Assembly (NCBI RefSeq): GCF_006345805.1
Contig: NC_042999.1
Coordinates: forward strand, 46,624,001 to 46,688,000
Origin: Octopus sinensis
Taxonomy: Eukaryota
DNA: 64,000 nucleotides
Direction: 5' to 3'
Shown in pieces: positions 105 to 63,540 of this stretch. The stretch's first letter is position 1; every line of letters begins with the position of its first letter. Made by a program: the position numbers and the translations under genes. The notes under the pieces are model-generated. The model did no database searches. It was not told the origin of the DNA and saw only the letters and a list, made by a program, of their open reading frames with translations.

Positions 105-1792
105 ACACCTCGGCAGAACTTCAGGGGACTCAAAGAGAAGAGCTTTACTGAGGGAAGACAAGAAATGCCTTCCAGGAAAACAATCAGAAAAGAAGTGTGC
201 TCCGCAGGTGTTCTGCGCAACGCAGTAGCTTAGCAACAGTCTTTTTTGTACATGGCGCAAAGGATTGTCAAGCAGCTAACCTAGCTGCACAAGGCACAGA
301 GAAGGAACCCTGCCCACCACTATGTAAGACCACCACAGTCAACAGACACGGGATTGCCTCCCCTAACGCCTGCACAGCCGTCACCCCAATACGTTTACTA
401 AATATTGGGGGCCTGTTGCATCAAAATAGAAACAAAATTTCTTTCCTCAGAGATCTTACTGCATGCCATCAAGCCCTATGCATAGCACTCGTGGAAACTC
501 ACCTCAGCCCTGATATAAAGGACGCAGAAGTACACATACCAAACTATGCCATACTGCGAACAGACAGAAGGGAAAGGAGCCATGATGGAGTTGCTGTATA
601 CATCCGAGATGACCTCACACCCCAGGTCTTAAAGACATAAACAAATTCGGTATGTGACACTTCAATTGTATACATAAGACAATATAATATAGTCATATGC
701 AATACATATTGCCCACCGGATGCTCCAAATCACATAGGCAAGTTTGAAGATTGCCTCACAAGAATTAAAGAAATCCTCATGAATCTGGAATACCACGTGA
801 CCATATATCTTATGGGTGATTTCAACTTCCCCAACGTCAAATGGCCCGAAGGCCTCATACTCTCAGGAATGAATCATTGCAAGCAAGTACAGGTGGAGTC
901 CCTGCTCAACCTCACCAATGCCTTATTCATGGAGCAAGTTGTACTCAAACCAACTAGGGCGAATAACATTCTGGATCTCTGCTTCACGAAGAATATGGAC
1001 ATCATTCATGATGTGAAAGTGACACCGACATCAGCTTCGGATCACAACATAATAGAGCTGCCTATGTTTGGGCCGAAAGTAACTAGAGACATACAGCCTA
1101 AAGGAAGCACCCGAAATCTCTCCAATCTGAACTTCCACAGAGCAGATTGGAAATCGATCCAAAAAGAGATCCTCTGAGAGGACTGGCCGGAATGTCTCTC
1201 CACACCAGACATTGACATGAAACTAGAATGTTTCATGTCTTCTGTGCAAGCCGTATGACAGAAATATGTCCCAGAGCACAAGGCCAAAACAAATAGGAGC
1301 AAGATTCCAAGAGACAGGAAGATCCTCATGAGACGACGGACGAAGGTTGCAAATCGTCTCAACCAACATCCCAAAAGTAGCGAGCGTCCCGCCTAAAAAC
1401 AACACTGATGGAGATCGAAAAAAGGCTGCAACAATCCTATGTGAGAGAGAAAGCAGACAAAGAAGCCTGGGTTATAAAAAACATTAAATCAAACCCAAAG
1501 GCCTTCTTTCATTACGCGAAAGAAACAGTCTCAGTACATTACAAGATAGGACCCCTCCTGCAAAAGGGTGGCTCCCTCACAGACACTCCAACCAAGATCA
1601 GTGAGATGCTGAATGACCAGTTCAAAAGTGTCTTTACCACCCCGTTGGAACACAGTCACGTGAACGAACCAGCGGACTTTTTTGCCGCCTCACCTATAAC
1701 CAGCGAGGCGGTTACAATAGAATGTATTGACATTAGCGAAGAAGATGTCCTACTAGCCATAGATGAAGTGGACACTTAACTACATTATATTT

Positions 1793-1833
1793 TGCTTGTT
1801 TCAGTCATTGGACAGCGCTCATTCTGGAGCACC
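1793..1833 (-). mobile_element. 3' tail fragment of SINE family A inserted antisense in the LINE
   Basis: cttgtttcagtcattggacagcgctcattctggagcacc resembles the reverse complement of the SINE A tail. It sits where the GPDG motif is expected, between IDEVDT and FLAILLK. Confidence 0.65.
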
Positions 1834-3517
1834 ACACTATACTTATTTTTCCTAGCAATCCTCCTCAAAGCGTGTAAGCATGCTCTGGCAAAACCCCTCA
1901 AGATTCTCTTCCCGAGCATTCTTACAAATGGCAAACTGCCAAGCAAGCTGAAGGAGGGAATAATATGCCCAATACATAAAGTAGAGCAGATGCCAAAAAC
2001 TATAGGCCTATCTCTCTGACTTCACACATCAACAAAGTCATGGAACGGATAGTCAGAAAGAAGCTAATCGCATTCCTTGAGGAAAATAACTTGCTGAGTG
2101 ATACCCAGCATGGTTTTCGACCAGGTAGGAGTTGCCTGACACAGCTCTTACAAAATTATGACTGGGTGTTTAGGCAGTTACTCAACAAATCAAATGTGGA
2201 CGTAAGCTTTTGTCAAGGTGGATCATGGTATGATATGCCACAAACTGCGTGACCTCGGCATAGCTGGAAAACTTGGAGTGTGGTTACATGACTTCCTGAA
2301 AGATAGGAGTCAGGCAGTAGTGGTTAATGGAGCCACCTCTATGAACACACAAATAGTGAGCGGTGTTCCACAGGCCACCGTCTTGGGACCACTGCTTTTT
2401 ATAGTGGCCTTCTCAGATATGCCCTCAAACGCCCGGATAGCAACTCTGGCAAGCTATGCAGACGATACGAAAGTCTCGCAGAAAATACAGAACCCCAGCG
2501 ATGTTGCACGTCTGCAGCAGGAGTTGGACTCAATCTACAGATGGGTTGAGGATAATAATATGCAGTTTAATGCTGAAAAATTCCAGGCCCTGCGCTATCA
2601 GTATCCAAAACTGACTATTAAACTTACAGAATACACCGGTCCACAGGGAATTTCAGTCCCAGAGCCTAAGTCTGTGAGGGACCTGGGTATCGACATGAGT
2701 GATGATACCTCTTTCCAAGCGCACATTACCCGGATACCGACAAAGTGCAGACGACTAGCTGGGTGGATCCTAAGAACATTCAGAACCAGAGATAAGGAAA
2801 CCATGATGGTCCTCTGGCGGACATTCGTCCTCAGCCGCCTGGATTACTGCTCACAGCTATGGTCACCCACCAGTGTAAAATTAACAGCGAACCTTGAAGC
2901 AATCCAGAGAAGATTCACAAAGAAGATCGTCACTTTGCAACAGTTCAGCTCCTGGGAAAGGTTGAAATAGCTAAGACTCTACTCCCTGGAGAGAAGACGG
3001 AGGGGTATGCAGTAATATATGTCTGGAATATCCTGGAAGGAATTGTGCCAAATTTTGGCATTGTAAGCTACACCAATGCTAGAACGGGACGACACTGCAT
3101 AGTGCCAAAGATCCCAGCAATGCCAACGCGCTTCAGGACCAGCTACTGCAACAGCCTGTGTTTCAAGGGCCCACAGATTTTTAATATTCTCCCAAAGAGT
3201 CTGAGGAACTTGCACAAAGTAGATGTAGCGGTTCTTAAATCAAAGCTGGACATCTTCCTGTCGAGAGTCCTAGGTGAACCTACCTCACGTCAAGAGGTGC
3301 AGATGAGAATAGCTATATCAAAGTCCATTCTTCACCAAGTGCCACATATTAGAGGAGGCTCTTCGTAATAACAGTGTAGCACAAAACGGCGGTGCATCAG
3401 CATGGCCGCAGCTCTGAGCTGAAACAAGAAAAAAAGCATATATATATACATACATACATATATATATACACACACATGTATATATATATATATTATATAA
3501 TATATATATATATATCT

Positions 3518-3580
3518 CAGTGGGACTGAACCCGCAACCATGTGGTTGGTTAGCAAGCTACTTACCACACAGCCACTCCT
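3518..3580 (-). mobile_element. SINE family A, tRNA-like head fragment
   Basis: Reverse complement of ggagtggctgtgtggtaagtagcttg...ggttcagtcccactg, the same as the head at 40558. Confidence 0.85.
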
Positions 3581-3621
3581 ATATATATATATATATATAC
3601 TATATATATATTATATATATG

Positions 3622-3653
<32 letters not shown>

Positions 3654-3661
3654 ATATATAT

Positions 3662-4274
3662 ACTTACTTCGTTCATTCCACTCTTCATTAATTCGTTCCC
3701 CCGGTCTCATATTTCTTGGCCTTCTCTTCATGCTCACTTTCCCCCTCTTTCCTTCACTGTGTCCACTGTTATTATTTTTCTCGCCCCTCCTTAATTCTTC
3801 TATCTCTCAGCATCTACCTCTCTCTCTCTTCTCTCCCCACGTGACCGGTGTTTGGCCAAGCCTGACATTATTTCTTGGTTCGACCACCATCCTGCAACAT
3901 TATATTCTTCACTGTGCCTGTCAAATAATTTGTCCCTGCCGTTAGGATTTACTGCCACACACAACAGCTTAATTTAATTCGCCCTTAGTCGAAAGACACC
4001 TGTTTTATGCCATGCTATTGCATGTGTATTTGTGTAAAATTTCTCCGTTTTTTCCGTCCTTGTTTTCGTATATATTCGCTGCTTTCTTCTAAGGAATCTA
4101 ATGCTCTTAGCTTAGTTTTTCCTGGGGCTGGCCAGATTGGAGCAATCTTGAGTATAACCAGCCGAAATTGCAAAGATATCTGGAACTCGACTGAGAAAGA
4201 AAACTCCGAATGACCCGTCCTTGTTTTTCTTTGTATCGTCTGTCTGGATGTTTTGTATTATTGTCCCATTTTTG

Positions 4275-4277
<3 letters not shown>
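3662..4277 (+). mobile_element. Probable Penelope-like 3' end/pLTR remnant between (TA)n tracts
   Basis: Pyrimidine-rich block bounded by (TA)n, with the same layout as hammerhead-bearing blocks nearby. No clean motif was found. Confidence 0.3.
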
Positions 4278-4332
<55 letters not shown>

Positions 4333-4348
4333 AGTGAGAGAAAGAGTG

Positions 4349-4417
<69 letters not shown>

Positions 4418-4474
4418 ATCTATCTATCTATCTATCTATGTATCTCTCTCTCTCTCCTCCCTCTCTCTCTCTCT

Positions 4475-5027
4475 ACATGAGTGATGATACCATCTTCTTT
4501 CCAAGCGCACATTACCCGGATACCGACAAAGTGCAGACGACTAGCTGGGTGGATCCTAAGAACATTCAGAACCAGAGATAAGGAAACCATGATGGTCCTC
4601 TGGCGGACATTCGTCCTCAGCCGCCTGGATTACTGCTCACAGCTATGATCACCCACCAGTGTAAAATTAACAGCGAACCTTGAAGCAATCCAGAGAAGAT
4701 TCACAAAGAAGATCGTCACTTTGCAACAGTTCAGCTCCTGGGAAAGGTTGAAACAGCTAAGACTCTACTCCCTGGAGAGAAGACGGAGGGGTATGCAGTA
4801 ATATATGTCTGGAATATCCTGGAAGGAATTGTGCCAAATTTTGGCATTGTAAGCTACACCAATGCTAGAACGGGACGACACTGCATAGTGCCAAAGATCC
4901 CAGCAATGCCAACGCGCTTCAGGACCAGCTACTGCAACAGCCTGTGTTTCAAGGGCCCACAGATTTTTAATATTCTCCCAAAGAGTCTGAGGAACTTGCA
5001 CAAAGTAGATGTAGCGGTTCTTAAATC
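4475..5027 (+). repeat. Near-identical duplicate of LINE segment 2693-3241
   Basis: Direct repeat of about 550 bp. The antisense ORFs at 2979-3215 and 4765-5001 are identical. It is embedded in (TCTA)n/(CT)n. Confidence 0.95.
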
Positions 5028-5072
5028 TATCTATCTATGTATCTCTCTCTCTCTCTACATGAGTGATGATAC

Positions 5073-5127
<55 letters not shown>

Positions 5128-5165
5128 AAAAAGGAGATGTGGAACACGAGTTGTGATATATAAAA

Positions 5166-21780: not shown

Positions 21781-22082
21781 TATATATATATATATATATG
21801 AGCACTTTTAGGCAATGTGTCTATACAAATGCATACATATATGCCCACATGTAATGATATAGATCAAGAGACAGATTCATGCACAGAATTATAAATAATT
21901 ATTAATCTGGATAATCTTAGATAATATTTGTCACCTCGAATTCAAATAACAATGTTTGGTAGGCTAAATGTTATTTAGAACAACAAATTAAGGCAGTTCT
22001 ATATTTAAGAGATGAGGAATTATGTACATTATTTACATTATTTAAATTTTGACAGATATTTGTCCACATCTAATTTGTTGTT

Positions 22083-22127
22083 GACACAACGTTTCGGCTG
22101 ATATACCCCCAGCCTTCATCAGGTGTA
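22083..22127 (-). ncRNA. Minimal hammerhead ribozyme with canonical core
   Basis: Minus strand acac-CTGATGA-a-ggctg-ggggtatat-cagcc-GAAA-c-GTT-gtgt. Confidence 0.8.
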
Positions 22128-22161
22128 TTGGAGAAATTTCGAATATGGGTTCTCATTCCAC

Positions 22162-22234
22162 GGGCATATGGCGTAGTGGTTAATAGCGCGGGCTACTAAC
22201 CCCAAGATTCCGAGTTCGATTCCAGTCAGTGACT
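22162..22234 (+). promoter_or_regulatory. tRNA-like Pol III cassette (A and B boxes), not a functional tRNA
   Basis: A box TGGCGTAGTGG at 22169-22179 and B box GAGTTCGATTCC at 22212-22223. The anticodon-like loop is CTACTAA and the acceptor stem does not pair. Confidence 0.75.
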
Positions 22235-22329
22235 TGAATAATAATAATAATAACAACAACAGCAACAACAACCACAACAACAACAACAACAACAATAATA
22301 ATGATAATATAATAATGATGATGATGATG

Positions 22330-22362
<33 letters not shown>

Positions 22363-24640
22363 TAATAATAATAATAATAACAAAAACAACAACAACATTG
22401 AAAAATATCTTAGGAATGAAAACCCAGGTTCGAAATTTCCCCAAGACATACCAGCCGAAACGTTGTATTAACAACAAACAACATGAAGACAAATATCCGT
22501 GAAATGTAAATAATGTAAATAATGAACAAATTAAAGCTTATTTACATGTATATAAGTATTATTGTAACACCTCACAATTTCACAAACAAATGATAATGGA
22601 ATTACTTTTCTGAGATCCAAGCTAAATTTAAGATTACTATATCTATTATGATGATATATATTGGTGTCAGTTAAACCATATTCTGAATTGATTAATGCTT
22701 TCCATATTTATAGAATATGTCAGCAAATTTAACTATAGATTTTCTCGTATCGAAGTCTAAACCAATACTCTGAGAGTGGCACAGTTTGTTGATCTCCAGA
22801 CTCAATTAATATGCAGTATTGTAATGTTGGTGGATTTGCAGAATCATTAACACACGAGAAATTGTTATGCAGAGTTGCCTACACCTCTTTAGATTTTGAG
22901 TTTAAATCCAGCCTTGTTTAACCTTACTATTCATACTTCTAGGGACAACAAAATATATTAAGAGTCGTGTATTGGAGAACGACATAATCGGGGTATTCCT
23001 TTAACGTATCACGAAATGCATCGGTGAAGACATGTTTAGTGTTGTTAGGTAATACAAAACTGTATTAGTATTCAAAAGTAGCCAGCAACCAATATAACCT
23101 TAAGTTTGGCTCGAAAATAAAATGGAATAAAAACAGAAAGATGGGTTATTTGTTATTGCAACAATTCTTTGGCTAAGAGTTTTTATTTTGATGTAAGCAT
23201 AGTAAAGTAAAGTATGCAGTATGCACAACATCCATGACATGACATTATGTTATATGTTACGCAACTCTCAATTCACCAAGCTAACCAAATAAACAAGCGA
23301 GCAATGACATGTCTATTAATAAACAAATGATGAACAAGAGAAATTTATAGTCAGAATTACCAACATTCAAGAAAGTAAAGTGACTCTGCCTACAATTTGT
23401 CAATCAATGAGTATGGATTGCAGAATGATGTTGTCAATGAAAGAACAGTTAAAAGTGTTCAGATTCCAAAGCTGTCTTTAAACTTAATAACCTCATTCAT
23501 AAAGGCTGGTGGTGGCAGAACTTGCTTATATACAAGCGGATGTCAAGCGCCGCCACGGATGACATTTGCCCCCTATCAACACATGTTCAAAAGCAGCTGT
23601 TAATGATGCTTTAAAAACCCATTTATTTTGTTATATTGATTTAAAGTTTACTACATTAAGGAGTGACATGGTTAATAAATCCCATTTGTTCACTTAATTA
23701 CCCTTGATAAAAGTGGTCCGGTTAATTATAATAAAACTAATAGGATATCAGTTTTAATGAATAGAAATCCAGTAAGTATAATTCAGAGCGAACTACTCCA
23801 GGAAAGCTGCAGATCAGGAAAGTTCTTTGCAAAATTTCAGAGAAGGGAGGGAAAGAGAAGAGGGAAAACGAAAAGATATAATGAAATAGGATAAATCAAA
23901 TTGGCTGGAAGAATAAAGTAAATCAATTGGTATCATACACTTTGAGTAGACAGCTTACGCGCTATCAAAATAATTTAAAATTATTGTAAAAAGGAAATGT
24001 TAAAAGTGTTTATCAAAAATAGAGAGAATGGAAAAGTCATAGGTGCTAAGTAATAACGAATTGGTAGCATTATGATTAGTTATAAAGATATTGAAACTTC
24101 GTAAGTAGAGAGGGTGATACAATTATTATAAAGGGCTCATCCATGGCTCGTAGCAAATTGAAAGTTTAGTAAATTAACTTAAAAGTTATTAAATTAAATT
24201 GTATAAAATATGGAAATATATACTAAATTGCAGTCACCGGTATCTGTCGTTTGAATCAAGAATAGGCAAACGTACGTTAAATAATAGCATTAAGAAGTCA
24301 TCTAAATATAGTTAATAAATCCTATTACTGGTGGTAATGTCTTTATCATAGGATTAGTGATACGTACCTAGCAGGCTGGAAAGGCTTATAAGAAAGTTCT
24401 ACGGATAGAATTTGATCCTTAATTCCTCTGATCTATTGATAACTTTACCCACGCATTTTGAGATTTTCCAATTTTAAAGATAAGTGATTGCAACCATATC
24501 TATCACTAAAAAAATTAATAATTGTAATTCAACTTTTTGACCTTGTTTTTAACGGCTTGAAAAATGGCGAAATATATTAATATTTCGACAAGAAATCCCT
24601 AGTATTCCATAAGAACTGTAGTTTTTATTATAATAATAAT

Positions 24641-46910: not shown

Positions 46911-49165
46911 AAGTTCTATATTTAAGAGATGAGGAATTATGTATATTATTTACCTTATTTACATTATTTATATTTGACAGATATTTGTCCTCATCTTGTT
47001 TGTTGCTAACATTTCGGCTAATATACCCTACATTTTAAACCTAAGGTTATTTTTTTATGTTGTTGCTATCATTATTATTTTTAAGGTCACTGCCTGGAAT
47101 ATACTCGGGATCTTGGGGTTAGTAGCCCGCGCTCTTAACCACTACACCGTGGGCAATTAAGGAGTGAATTTTAGGGCTTATAAATTTAATATTCTCCTGT
47201 CCTTCCTTAATACCGGTTCCCATATGCTGTTCATATCTGCACTCGGTCTGCATAGGAGGTTAGCATATGTGCTGCTACTTTTAGTTTTGATATTTCCCAG
47301 TGGTGTTCTCTGTCTATTATTTTAACACCATCCCATAGTGGAGGTGGTCTCCATTTTCCCACACATGATCAGCTATACCCGATTTATCAATATCTTCCCG
47401 TGTCACAGCTTTGCAATGTCCCTCTACTCTTATTTTGAGGGGGAGGCATGTTTCGCCTTTGTATAACTTACCACAGCTGCATGGAACGGAGTACAGGCAG
47501 TTCGTGTTCATATTGTCTTCTATTGGTGGTGTTACTCGAAGGAGATATTTGCGAAGTGTTGTATTAATTTTGAATACTGTCCTGATGTCATATGGGTCGC
47601 ATATATTTTGTATCTTTTCGGTGAGGCCTTTCACATAGGGTAGACAGTTTGTGGACAGTTTATCGGTTTCATTCTCTCTTTTCGTCATAATTGGAGTGGA
47701 GAGTTGTTGCTTAATAGATTATTAATTGGTGTGGGATAGTTGTTGCTTAATAGATTATCACTGAGCTTGATAATTTATTCGTGGTGGGTACCACGGTCGC
47801 TACTTATATTCATCGCTCGATGTTTTAGGCTCTTTACAATGTATGGATGGTGGAAGTTAAAGTTGAGGCATCGTCCAGTGAATGTCGGCTTGCGGTATAT
47901 GGATGTCCTGAATCCATACTTGGTGCATGTTATTAATACATTCAGGAATGCTAGCTGATTGTCTTTTTCCTTTTTCATTGTGAACTGTACGTATGGCTTT
48001 ATTGAGTCACATGATCTTAACAGCACTTGGACATCTTCCTGGTGGGGCCAGAGTATAAAGGTATCATCAACATATCGCAGGCATAGGTTTGGTTTTAGTG
48101 ATGATGATCCTAAAGCTAAATCCTCAAAGTAGTTCATGTATATATTGGTTATTATCAGTGATAATGTTGAACCCATAGCTAAACCCTCCTCTTGTCGATA
48201 TATATCAGAGTCCATACTGAAGTAGGTAGTTTCTAAACAGAAGGTCAACATTTCCATTAAGTTTCTTATTGGTATACTGGTGAGTTCTTTTAGATGAGTG
48301 CCTGTCACCAGTTTTTTCCTGAATCACCAATAGTGCTTCACCAGTTGGGACTTTGGCGAACAGATTTATCACATCTAGACTCACCATCTGGTTGGAATCA
48401 GTTGTGGTATCCTTGATCAATTCTGTGAAGTGGGTGGAATTCTTCACGTGCGATGTTGACTTTCCTGCTAATGGACTGATTATATCCACAAGGAAACGAC
48501 TCAGTGGATGACATGCTGAACCTCTACAGCTCACCATAGGTCTTAATGGAATACCATCCTTGGGAATCTTAGGAAGACCGTACATGTGTGCCAGTTTACT
48601 GTAATGTTGAGTCAGTTGTTTGTACTTCATTGGTGTAAAGTGGTCCTTGTTCTTGATCAAGATCTGTGACAACTTCCTCTCTGTTTTCAAAGTAGGGTCT
48701 TTCTTTACTTTGCTGTAGCTACCATCACTTATAAGACTTGCCAATTTTTCAGAGTAGTCAGACGTGTTCATCACCACTGTAATATTTCCCTTGTCCGCTG
48801 GAAGTATTATGATAGAGCTGTCATTCCGTAGTCTTTTGATGGCGAACTTTTCTTCTTTGGTGATATTTGGTTTGGGAAGTTTCAGTTTTTATTATACTTG
48901 TCTCACTTTCCACCTTAGTCCATCTCCCTGAGTTTTTGATATCTTTTGGGCTGTCTCTTCAATAGGGGCTATTATGTCCAAGTATGGAATGCACTTGATG
49001 GTTGTCGGAAAGTTGAGGCCTTTGTTTAGTACTGCTGCTTCAGATCTTTCTAGATGTCGGCTACTTACATTAATTAATGCTTTCACAGGTGGGTGACGGA
49101 TTTCCGTCTTCATTCTCTGACTTTTGAGTTTCATGGACTTCTTAATCTGGCGTGTCTTCACCATT
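46911..49165 (-). mobile_element. Penelope-like element (RT plus GIY-YIG), 5'-truncated and decayed, with 3' pLTR
   Basis: LNKGLNF, YGLPKIPKDGIPLRP, SLDV..LF, GLAMGSTLS, RYVDDTF, YRKPT; GIY-YIG LYSVPCSCGKLYKGET; ORF ends ..NSIWEPVLRKDRRILNL* at 47178. The pLTR at 46911-47153 has a tRNA-like cassette and a partly deleted hammerhead. Confidence 0.95.
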
Positions 49166-49193
49166 TCAAAGAGAAATGTTTGTATATTATGAT

Positions 49194-51539: not shown

Positions 51540-51832
51540 GTTTGTTTGTTCCTTATCGAGCCATTACCTGGCTCATAAGGGCCGTTTTCCCGGTTTACTT
51601 GGCGTAAAGGTTTCCCAACTGGACGGGACGCCGGTGAGCTGCAAGATGCAGGAGGAAAGACTGAGAGAAAGTTGTGGTAAAAGAGTCAGGTTAGTTCGTC
51701 ATTACCTTCTGCCGGAGCCCCGTGGAGCTTAAGTGTTGCGCTCAAAAACACACACATCGCCCGGTCTGAGATTCGAATCCGCGATCCCTCGACCGCGAGT
51801 CAGCTGCTCTAATCACTAGGCCATGTGCCTCC
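51540..51832 (-). mobile_element. SINE family C variant (same tRNA head, different tail)
   Basis: Head ggcacatggcctagtg..gactcgcggtcgagggatcgcggattcgaatc is like 62497. The 3' part differs and ends in (aaac)n. Confidence 0.8.
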
Positions 51833-51890
51833 ACACACACAAACACGTATATATATATAGAGAGAGAGAGACGTATATATATGTGTATAT

Positions 51891-53640: not shown

Positions 53641-55885
<2,245 letters not shown>

Positions 55886-55902
55886 AAAAATATTTTTTTA
55901 TA

Positions 55903-55964
<62 letters not shown>

Positions 55965-55966
55965 CA

Positions 55967-56053
<87 letters not shown>

Positions 56054-56811
56054 TATTATTATTAATCTGCTGATGTTGCAACATTTATTATTATGGATAA
56101 CTCGGTTATCAAGACGAACCGATCACATAATGAAGGTAGCCGGAATCCTACGCAACCCGCTTTCATTTCAATATCACAAAGTCGCAGTACAATGCTCAGT
56201 TCTCCACACGCCGGATGTTCACTTCAAATAGGCTATTTGACCGGCTAAACATATATATCTTTCTCGGAAACGGAAAATTGCACTGTCTTGAGTTATATTT
56301 ACGTTGGTGTTAATAGTGGTGGTGGTAACGGAGGTGGAATTTTCAGCTTGAGTTGAAAGGACAATTTGAATATCCTTATTTCTTTCGTTTATGCTCATCG
56401 TTGTCGTTTCGTTCAGTATTGATGGCGCCAGTTCTGGAAACAGTACTGTTTGTTTCACGTCTTTTCATTTGTGTTATTTACATCTGTATTGTCGTTGACA
56501 TTGCTATTGTGTTCCTACATTATTTTTTTCAAAGGTAGTAGCGAGAATTTGATAATATAGTGTCTGATGAAACAGCAAACAACATACTAGATTTATGAAG
56601 ACGTTTGTTTTTTAAACTGTGTAATTTTGCCATAAAAATGCTTCACAATTTGCTTTGAGGGAGCAAACTTTTCACAAAGGCAACTAGTTTCAAAAAGATG
56701 CTGACTTGTTTATAGCAAAAACCAAAATTACTCTAATCAAAACAACAAAAGTCATTGACATCATACCAGACGATACTATCGGCTGCAGTAATTCGCTTAT
56801 ATTTTATTTTC

Positions 56812-63180: not shown

Positions 63181-63452
63181 ACTGCGGAAACTCATCATCA
63201 TCATCATCATCATCTGACCGTTGCAATGCAACTCATAGAATAAGGGGTAATAGAAAGGTTATATTGTTTTTTCTGGTCTATTCTTTGTTCTGTTATAGTT
63301 GTGGTGATGTCAGTAGTGGTCATACGTTGCCTATGTTTTATGGTAGGAGCAATTAATCATCGGAGGAGCATAAGACTAATATGATGCCAGACGTGAGGCC
63401 ATTTTTGCCTCTGTTTCCAAGATATATGTCTCTCCAAACTTCTTAAGCACTT

Positions 63453-63540
63453 CAGTTCTATATTTAAGAGATGAGGAATTATGTACATTATTTACATTAT
63501 TTACATTTGACGGGTATTATTTACATTACTTACATTTGAA
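63453..63540 (-). mobile_element. Isolated 3' tail of the 46911 Penelope family
   Basis: cagttctatatttaagagatgaggaattatgtacattatttacatt is the same as at 21994 and nearly the same as at 46911. Confidence 0.85.

Follow-up and report, generated by a model that had tools for sequence, protein, structure and literature searches.

A tRNA-derived head in the pLTR of an octopus Penelope-like element and its possible role in transcription

The insertion and its parent element

The window, the whole 64,000-nt stretch of Octopus sinensis DNA analysed here, contains a short insertion in which two arms of a pLTR are joined head to head (Table 1). The inverted arm carries a tail and meets the tRNA-derived head of the direct arm, which continues through an expanded microsatellite into a pLTR end that has neither the tail nor a complete hammerhead core; this arrangement, described in the first-pass annotation, was recovered in full. 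The two arms are identical at 96 of 112 aligned positions. The unit had been bounded by a 13-bp direct repeat with one mismatch; the duplication and its mismatch stand, and the length is 12 nt because the thirteenth base of the left repeat is the first base of the element itself. With up to one mismatch allowed, the left 12-mer occurs at only two of 63,988 plus-strand positions of the window, which are the two duplications.

Table 1. Features of the insertion and further copies of the family in the window
Feature	Coordinates	Strand	Remarks
Left target-site duplication, 12 nt	21982..21993	.	one mismatch to 22525-22536
Inverted pLTR arm with tail	21994..22159	-	5' truncation just within the ORF start region
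Optional PLE tail, 33 nt	21994..22026	-	this arm only; one tailed arm in most two-armed loci
Minimal type I hammerhead motif	22084..22126	-	intact core, 5-bp helix II and 4-bp helix I, without helix III; read directly, type according to PMC4209133 (partial text)
tRNA-derived head (5' end of pLTR)	22160..22236	+	2-nt leader, tRNA-like part from 22162
A-box-like motif	22169..22179	+	read directly; consensus from general knowledge, also quoted in PMC10886601 (partial text)
B-box-like motif	22212..22222	+	read directly
Expanded (AAT)/(AAC)/(GAT) tract	22237..22397	+	variable microsatellite of the family
3' part of direct pLTR, without tail	22398..22524	+	20 nt missing from hammerhead core
Right target-site duplication, 12 nt	22525..22536	.	
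Second copy, long and decayed	46912..49170	-	RT and GIY-YIG coding remnants, then the same head, tract and tail
Third copy	63450..63518	-	tail-end fragment only

On the minus strand, the hammerhead of the inverted arm retains CTGATGA at 22122 and GAAAC ending at 22091, and the cut is predicted to fall between 22088 and 22087. The motif had been called canonical, a description that the missing helix III and the short helix I of this copy do not bear out; it is the minimal PLE type. In the direct arm, the core deletion falls between 22447 and 22448, and the start codon of the ORF likely lies at 22416, judging from the frame read in L217 and L223. Rfam searches returned no hammerhead or tRNA match, either in the whole window at the gathering threshold or in five loci with E-values up to 5.

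The description of the head as tRNA-like holds in that it is colinear with a host tRNA-Arg(TCT) and has A- and B-box motifs; neither ARAGORN nor Rfam called it as a tRNA gene. tRNA-Arg(TCT) was the best of 27 distinct tRNA sequences, taken from 30 host loci and covering some isotypes only, and its score exceeded all 300 shuffles. Single-strand folding of the head and the hammerhead was uninformative (z from -0.65 to +0.59). Elsewhere in the window, a different tRNA-like A/B-box head, probably that of an ordinary SINE, lies at about 51740-51835 on the minus strand, and broken frames at 152-5163 (plus strand) and 53863-56084 (minus strand) read like two LINE types, which we take to be an endonuclease-RT element and an R4/Dong-like end, respectively.

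The head, the (AAT)n tract, the minimal hammerhead and the tail are together the pLTR of a Penelope/Poseidon element with RT and GIY-YIG domains. An open frame ends about 30 nt upstream of some head copies, and the peptide of this frame has 3694 candidates in the 2.72-Gb host assembly. Among 30 loci retrieved with the C-terminal end of the ORF, 29 have all or part of the head directly after the stop (scored by eye); in ORF-bearing copies, the 5' pLTR begins with the head as well. The same repeat was found on both sides of the ORF as tandem or partial-tandem pLTRs, and the ORF starts within the pLTR, upstream of the hammerhead. One long copy (L061) is made up of an inverted arm and a partial pLTR, then roughly 2.3 kb of broken sequence coding for RT and GIY-YIG, and finally a full pLTR. 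The RT domain (RVT_1) scored above the Pfam cut-off in two copies and is 27-35% identical to that of another PLE group of the same genome. The ORF's C-terminal end resembles GIY-YIG clusters in a feature comparison (cosine 0.97); a Pfam search of the GIY-YIG piece gave no match. Features by which EN+ PLEs are recognized were found: RT followed by GIY-YIG in one ORF, pLTRs that hold the ORF start and a hammerhead motif, an inverted 5' arm, an optional tail and a target-site duplication. Placement in the Poseidon clade is suggested by motif reading rather than by a tree, and a linker zinc finger was not seen.

The assembly has 1081 exact matches to a hammerhead motif of 39 nt and 4219 to a head motif of 17 nt, which at a divergence of about 6% suggests a copy number in the order of 10,000 or more. 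The family looks inactive in this genome, since every long copy examined is broken and these copies are 85-90% alike. Seventeen random 10-kb stretches held a single insertion, too sparse a sample to map ends. The (AAT)n tract is often broken up or replaced by other repeats (by eye; L005, L016, L026, L098, and L106) and appears to be a landing site for them. An assembly search for other minimal-hammerhead families gave 42 matches, nearly all variants of the same PLE family; minimal hammerhead-like motifs with a different helix II (L312:1501-1535 and L338:1501-1535, both minus strand) perhaps belong to another small PLE family. The assembly also contains a second GIY-YIG retroelement family with intact frames of 780-781 amino acids (L293:1032-3374, L302:1221-3563, L292, and L291). 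Two of its members, L293 and L302, are 99% identical; this family may be young or active, and the T4 counts of its ORFs are normal.

Ends of the copies and mode of integration

The first-pass annotation had predicted a sharp peak of 5' ends at the start of the head. Ends were mapped in 70 loci picked solely by the hammerhead motif (73 matches); the first 30 loci, retrieved with a query that began at the head, did not enter any count of ends or variants. Thirty-two of the 73 arms end short of the head, 15 stop inside it (+11 to +51), 21 stop at -10 to +8 of the head start, one stops at -12 and four reach far into the ORF (-42 to -591). The predicted peak is present and the ends are not spread randomly: 21 of the 41 head-reaching arms stop at -10 to +8, compared with a chance expectation of 0.15 derived from the stop rate within the head (binomial p about 1e-13). 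Upstream read-through was found in nine of 30 loci picked by the head and in about 25 of the first 100 listed of 4219 head matches (by eye). Among 30 loci picked by the ORF N-terminus, the 5' pLTR reaches the head start in nine distinct loci, of which four stop there and five continue upstream. The peak is common to solo and coding copies.

A short palindrome lies at the head start, and one exact mirror register accounted for 731 strand matches, compared with 461 read-through junctions. At one locus (L147 and L152), both arms of a head-to-head insertion extend into the ORF start and their joint lies at the head palindrome. Some copies (L095, L098, L105, L120, L136, and L169) have their 5' end at -2 to -7, and no mirror arm could be seen next to them.

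Two-armed insertions were scored by eye in 30 rows, which represent 29 distinct loci: 27 of the loci have a tail on exactly one arm, and target-site duplications of 8-14 nt flank 14 of the rows. Penelope-type integration, proposed earlier for the insert, is borne out by the inverted arm, the one-sided tail and the target-site duplication. Mobilization by the PLE protein was also judged correctly. The one-tailed-arm pattern and the lengths of the duplications are as predicted by the available text of work on PAc, a PLE of the green anole (PMC11167929). In vitro, PAc cut and extended both target strands, two internal start sites bounded the tail, the RNA had to include about 172 nt of the ORF behind the priming site, and ribozyme cleavage was dispensable (PMC11167929). 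By analogy, a solo pLTR copy would likely be dead on arrival because the ORF stretch required by PAc is missing from it.

In three cDNA RNA-seq runs of a different organism, about 6% of each, the head start is likewise marked by the depth step and the mirror joint, so this boundary is shared with that organism. These runs, which would reveal a short or circular transcript poorly, yielded none; no transcript start was observed in them, and no read-end pile-up or cut-to-cut joint was listed. The strands were equally represented and 75-89% of the reads extended into other sequence; together with the lack of an end pile-up, this indicates that the reads reflect copies within host transcripts, and they are uninformative about a promoter of the element itself. 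Depth over the ORF N-terminus was at least 100-fold below that of the pLTR, which is in line with copy number and gives no evidence of expression.

The tRNA-derived head as a candidate promoter

Judging indirectly from the boxes, the 5' peak and the absence of T4 runs, the A and B boxes of the captured tRNA likely start the RNA of the element. Against this, variation in the boxes is hardly lower than elsewhere in the head (4.9% vs. 6.2%). We tentatively propose a broader reading, which we consider possible without calling it probable: the element may be an autonomous coding retrotransposon whose whole 2.7-kb RNA would be made by Pol III from the captured tRNA promoter, its terminators purged over the full length, and which would shed thousands of SINE-like copies of its front end. 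Transcription by Pol III leaves the translation of an uncapped RNA unexplained.

A T4 run is the usual stop for Pol III. The sense strand is free of T4 runs in L061 (2632 nt), L227, L225 and the long copy of the window; three further copies have four T4 runs, none at a shared place, and L062 has one. For comparison, eight retroelement ORFs of this genome (ten examined minus two near-duplicates) contain 65 T4 runs in 18,426 nt, or about 3.5 per kb (Fisher p 5e-4). A first metagenome scan found no relative. RT relatives from other hosts were drawn from 80 metagenome loci: a usable block was present in 67, the non-redundant set numbered 46, and the T share lay at 0.20-0.27 in 37. The 37 T-matched relatives have 187 T4 runs in 52,435 nt, and only one of them (L359) has none. 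L359 encodes RT and GIY-YIG (L359:2500-4750) and revealed no A or B box; about 2.2 kb of its ORF are T4-free, but several T4 runs lie in the UTR and the pLTR. The absence was less striking under codon shuffling, where P ranged from 0.02 to 0.11 among the four T4-free copies and from 0.14 to 0.53 among three others. Given the L359 exception and these P values, the absence of T4 runs is suggestive as a Pol III signal, and it counts as one evolutionary observation because the copies descend from one source.

A separate idea, that read-through copies have worse B boxes, was rejected since two samples were inconsistent. Head position 51 differed in the first set (p 3e-4, or about 0.06 once corrected for 178 columns) and showed no difference in a fresh set, which consisted of 39 read-through heads and 46 mirror heads (p 0.79). 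In the fresh set, position 56 differed (p 0.0045 among 66 tests) and the B box was intact in nine of 34 and 21 of 41 heads, respectively.

The strongest competing account, which we nonetheless regard as unlikely, involves the same PLE with the head as an old tRNA-derived passenger. Its RNA would come from Pol II or host read-through, and the palindrome would produce the 5' peak, either through a cDNA that folds back or through the annealing of two cDNA ends. The stops do fall inside the palindrome, at -8 to +1, and the dominant mirror register is also the strongest strand-switch joint among the RNA reads. Palindromes at pLTR ends and self-priming have been proposed before, and the 5' ends of rotifer pLTRs have palindromes together with Pol II-like motifs (PMC3846280, partial text). 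The T4-free ORF of L359, which lacks A and B boxes, also favors a passenger, but the octopus element has no T4 runs in its AT-rich pLTR and 3' UTR either, whereas L359 has several in its own UTR and pLTR. Fold-back does not explain the copies that start at -2 to -7 because no adjacent mirror arm is visible, and several of the stops at -2 lack a mirror arm and fall before the 5' half of the palindrome would be copied. The palindrome itself resembles the relic of an earlier head-to-head join and may be a result rather than a cause.

The first-pass annotation favored a discrete non-autonomous element, and a PLE-dependent SINE, in which solo pLTRs are Pol III-transcribed sources copied in trans by the PLE protein, is improbable. 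Intact boxes in a tRNA-derived head, short length, copies that begin at the head with a sharp 5' peak, and an excess of pLTR copies over the ORF (4219 exact head matches vs. 385 ORF N-terminus candidates) are what a SINE would have. A SINE should, however, be a non-autonomous lineage distinct from its partner, and the solo copies are identical to the pLTR of the coding element, in which the head is fixed. When 40 ORF-linked heads were compared with 63 solo ones, they agreed in majority base at 178 of 178 columns, leaving no diagnostic column, and four of the nine ORF-bearing copies stop at the same place. Furthermore, the stretch of about 172 nt of ORF that PAc requires behind the priming site is absent from solo copies (PMC11167929, partial text), and under this account half of the tail-less arms should lose the tail, whereas one tailed arm is the rule.

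A non-LTR retrozyme spreading by self-cleaved monomer or circular RNAs, the other candidate put forward, is highly improbable: a type I hammerhead core is present and retrozymes have been proposed to derive from pLTRs (bioRxiv 10.64898/2026.07.22.740005, partial text), but instead of head-to-tail repeats with at least two intact hammerheads the insert is a head-to-head unit whose second motif is broken by deletion, no clean array was found in 70 loci, the ends lie at the tail and the head rather than at the predicted cut, and the motif is of the minimal type, which is weak in vitro (PMC4209133, partial text). The sole direct dimer inspected among the 70 loci (L210) consists of two solo pLTRs in tandem with a duplicated host spacer between them and looks like a later duplication rather than a retrozyme array.

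We read the insert as a decayed solo head-to-head copy of the pLTR, and consider it fairly probable that the tRNA-derived boxes, as an internal Pol III promoter, start the RNA and set its 5' end, that the PLE protein primes two cDNAs at the tail and that their run-off ends are joined. In a source locus of the form pLTR-ORF-pLTR, Pol III would initiate 2-7 nt before the tRNA-like sequence and, without a T4 terminator to stop it, could continue through the ORF. The PLE protein would nick both target strands about 10-12 nt apart, and two cDNAs would be primed internally, at both tail ends, as with anole PAc in vitro. cDNAs from the first pLTR would run off where the RNA begins, yielding solo pLTRs, and those from a later pLTR would extend into the ORF. 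A head-to-head join of the two cDNA ends would follow, often by way of the short palindrome that lies at the start of the head. In the present insert, one arm would have reached the head start and the other would have ended about 160 nt from its priming site; the expansion of the tract and the deletion in the hammerhead probably came later.

Significance and comparison with known systems

Autonomous non-LTR retrotransposons have been described as transcribed by Pol II, and Pol III promoters as a mark of non-coding parasites (PMC10886601, partial text). A coding PLE with a Pol III promoter, if confirmed, would break this split and raise the questions of how uncapped RNA is translated and whether the hammerhead participates. 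Such a PLE would, in addition, define where a PLE transcript starts, about which little is known. If the palindrome alone accounts for the peak, the element would be an ordinary PLE carrying a tRNA-like passenger. The case also shows how solo pLTRs can pass for a SINE family in repeat annotation.

Schistosome SM-alpha combines a type I hammerhead in a short pLTR-related repeat with Pol III boxes. Non-LTR retrozymes likewise have a type I hammerhead in such a repeat; in the accessible descriptions they form head-to-tail arrays with at least two intact ribozymes, whereas the octopus insert is a head-to-head pair with a minimal motif (PMC7229834; bioRxiv 10.64898/2026.07.22.740005). tRNA-derived SINEs, including OK, OR1 and OR2 of octopus (cited in PMC4758252 and PMC10886601), share the A/B-box head and short dispersed copies that begin at the head. 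The octopus pLTRs are set apart from these SINEs by having no separate lineage, no LINE tail and PLE-type ends. Closer in organization are the TRIMp3 elements (Cassandra, Helenus, and Ajax), which also have a small-RNA-derived Pol III promoter within a terminal repeat. They differ in being non-coding LTR elements of 0.3-1.3 kb, whereas the octopus repeat belongs to a coding element, and their autonomous partners, the author argues, must use Pol II (PMC10886601, partial text).

In the openly available text of the literature searched, no tRNA-headed or Pol III-transcribed PLE was found; Repbase, Dfam, subscription papers and supplements lay outside the search and may hold the family. The element is otherwise like Penelope/Poseidon EN+ PLEs such as PAc, with a single ORF (RT plus GIY-YIG at the C-terminus) that starts within the pLTR, a pLTR hammerhead, an optional tail of 30-40 nt, inverted and tandem insertions, duplications of 8-12 nt and a palindrome at the pLTR 5' end (PMC11167929, PMC8557442, PMC3846280). 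The promoter motifs of EN+ PLEs are described in the available portions of these papers as TATA- or Inr-like (PMC11167929, PMC8557442, PMC3846280). Unlike these elements, the octopus PLE has a tRNA-derived head with A and B boxes at the front of its pLTR, and T4 runs are absent from its sense strand.
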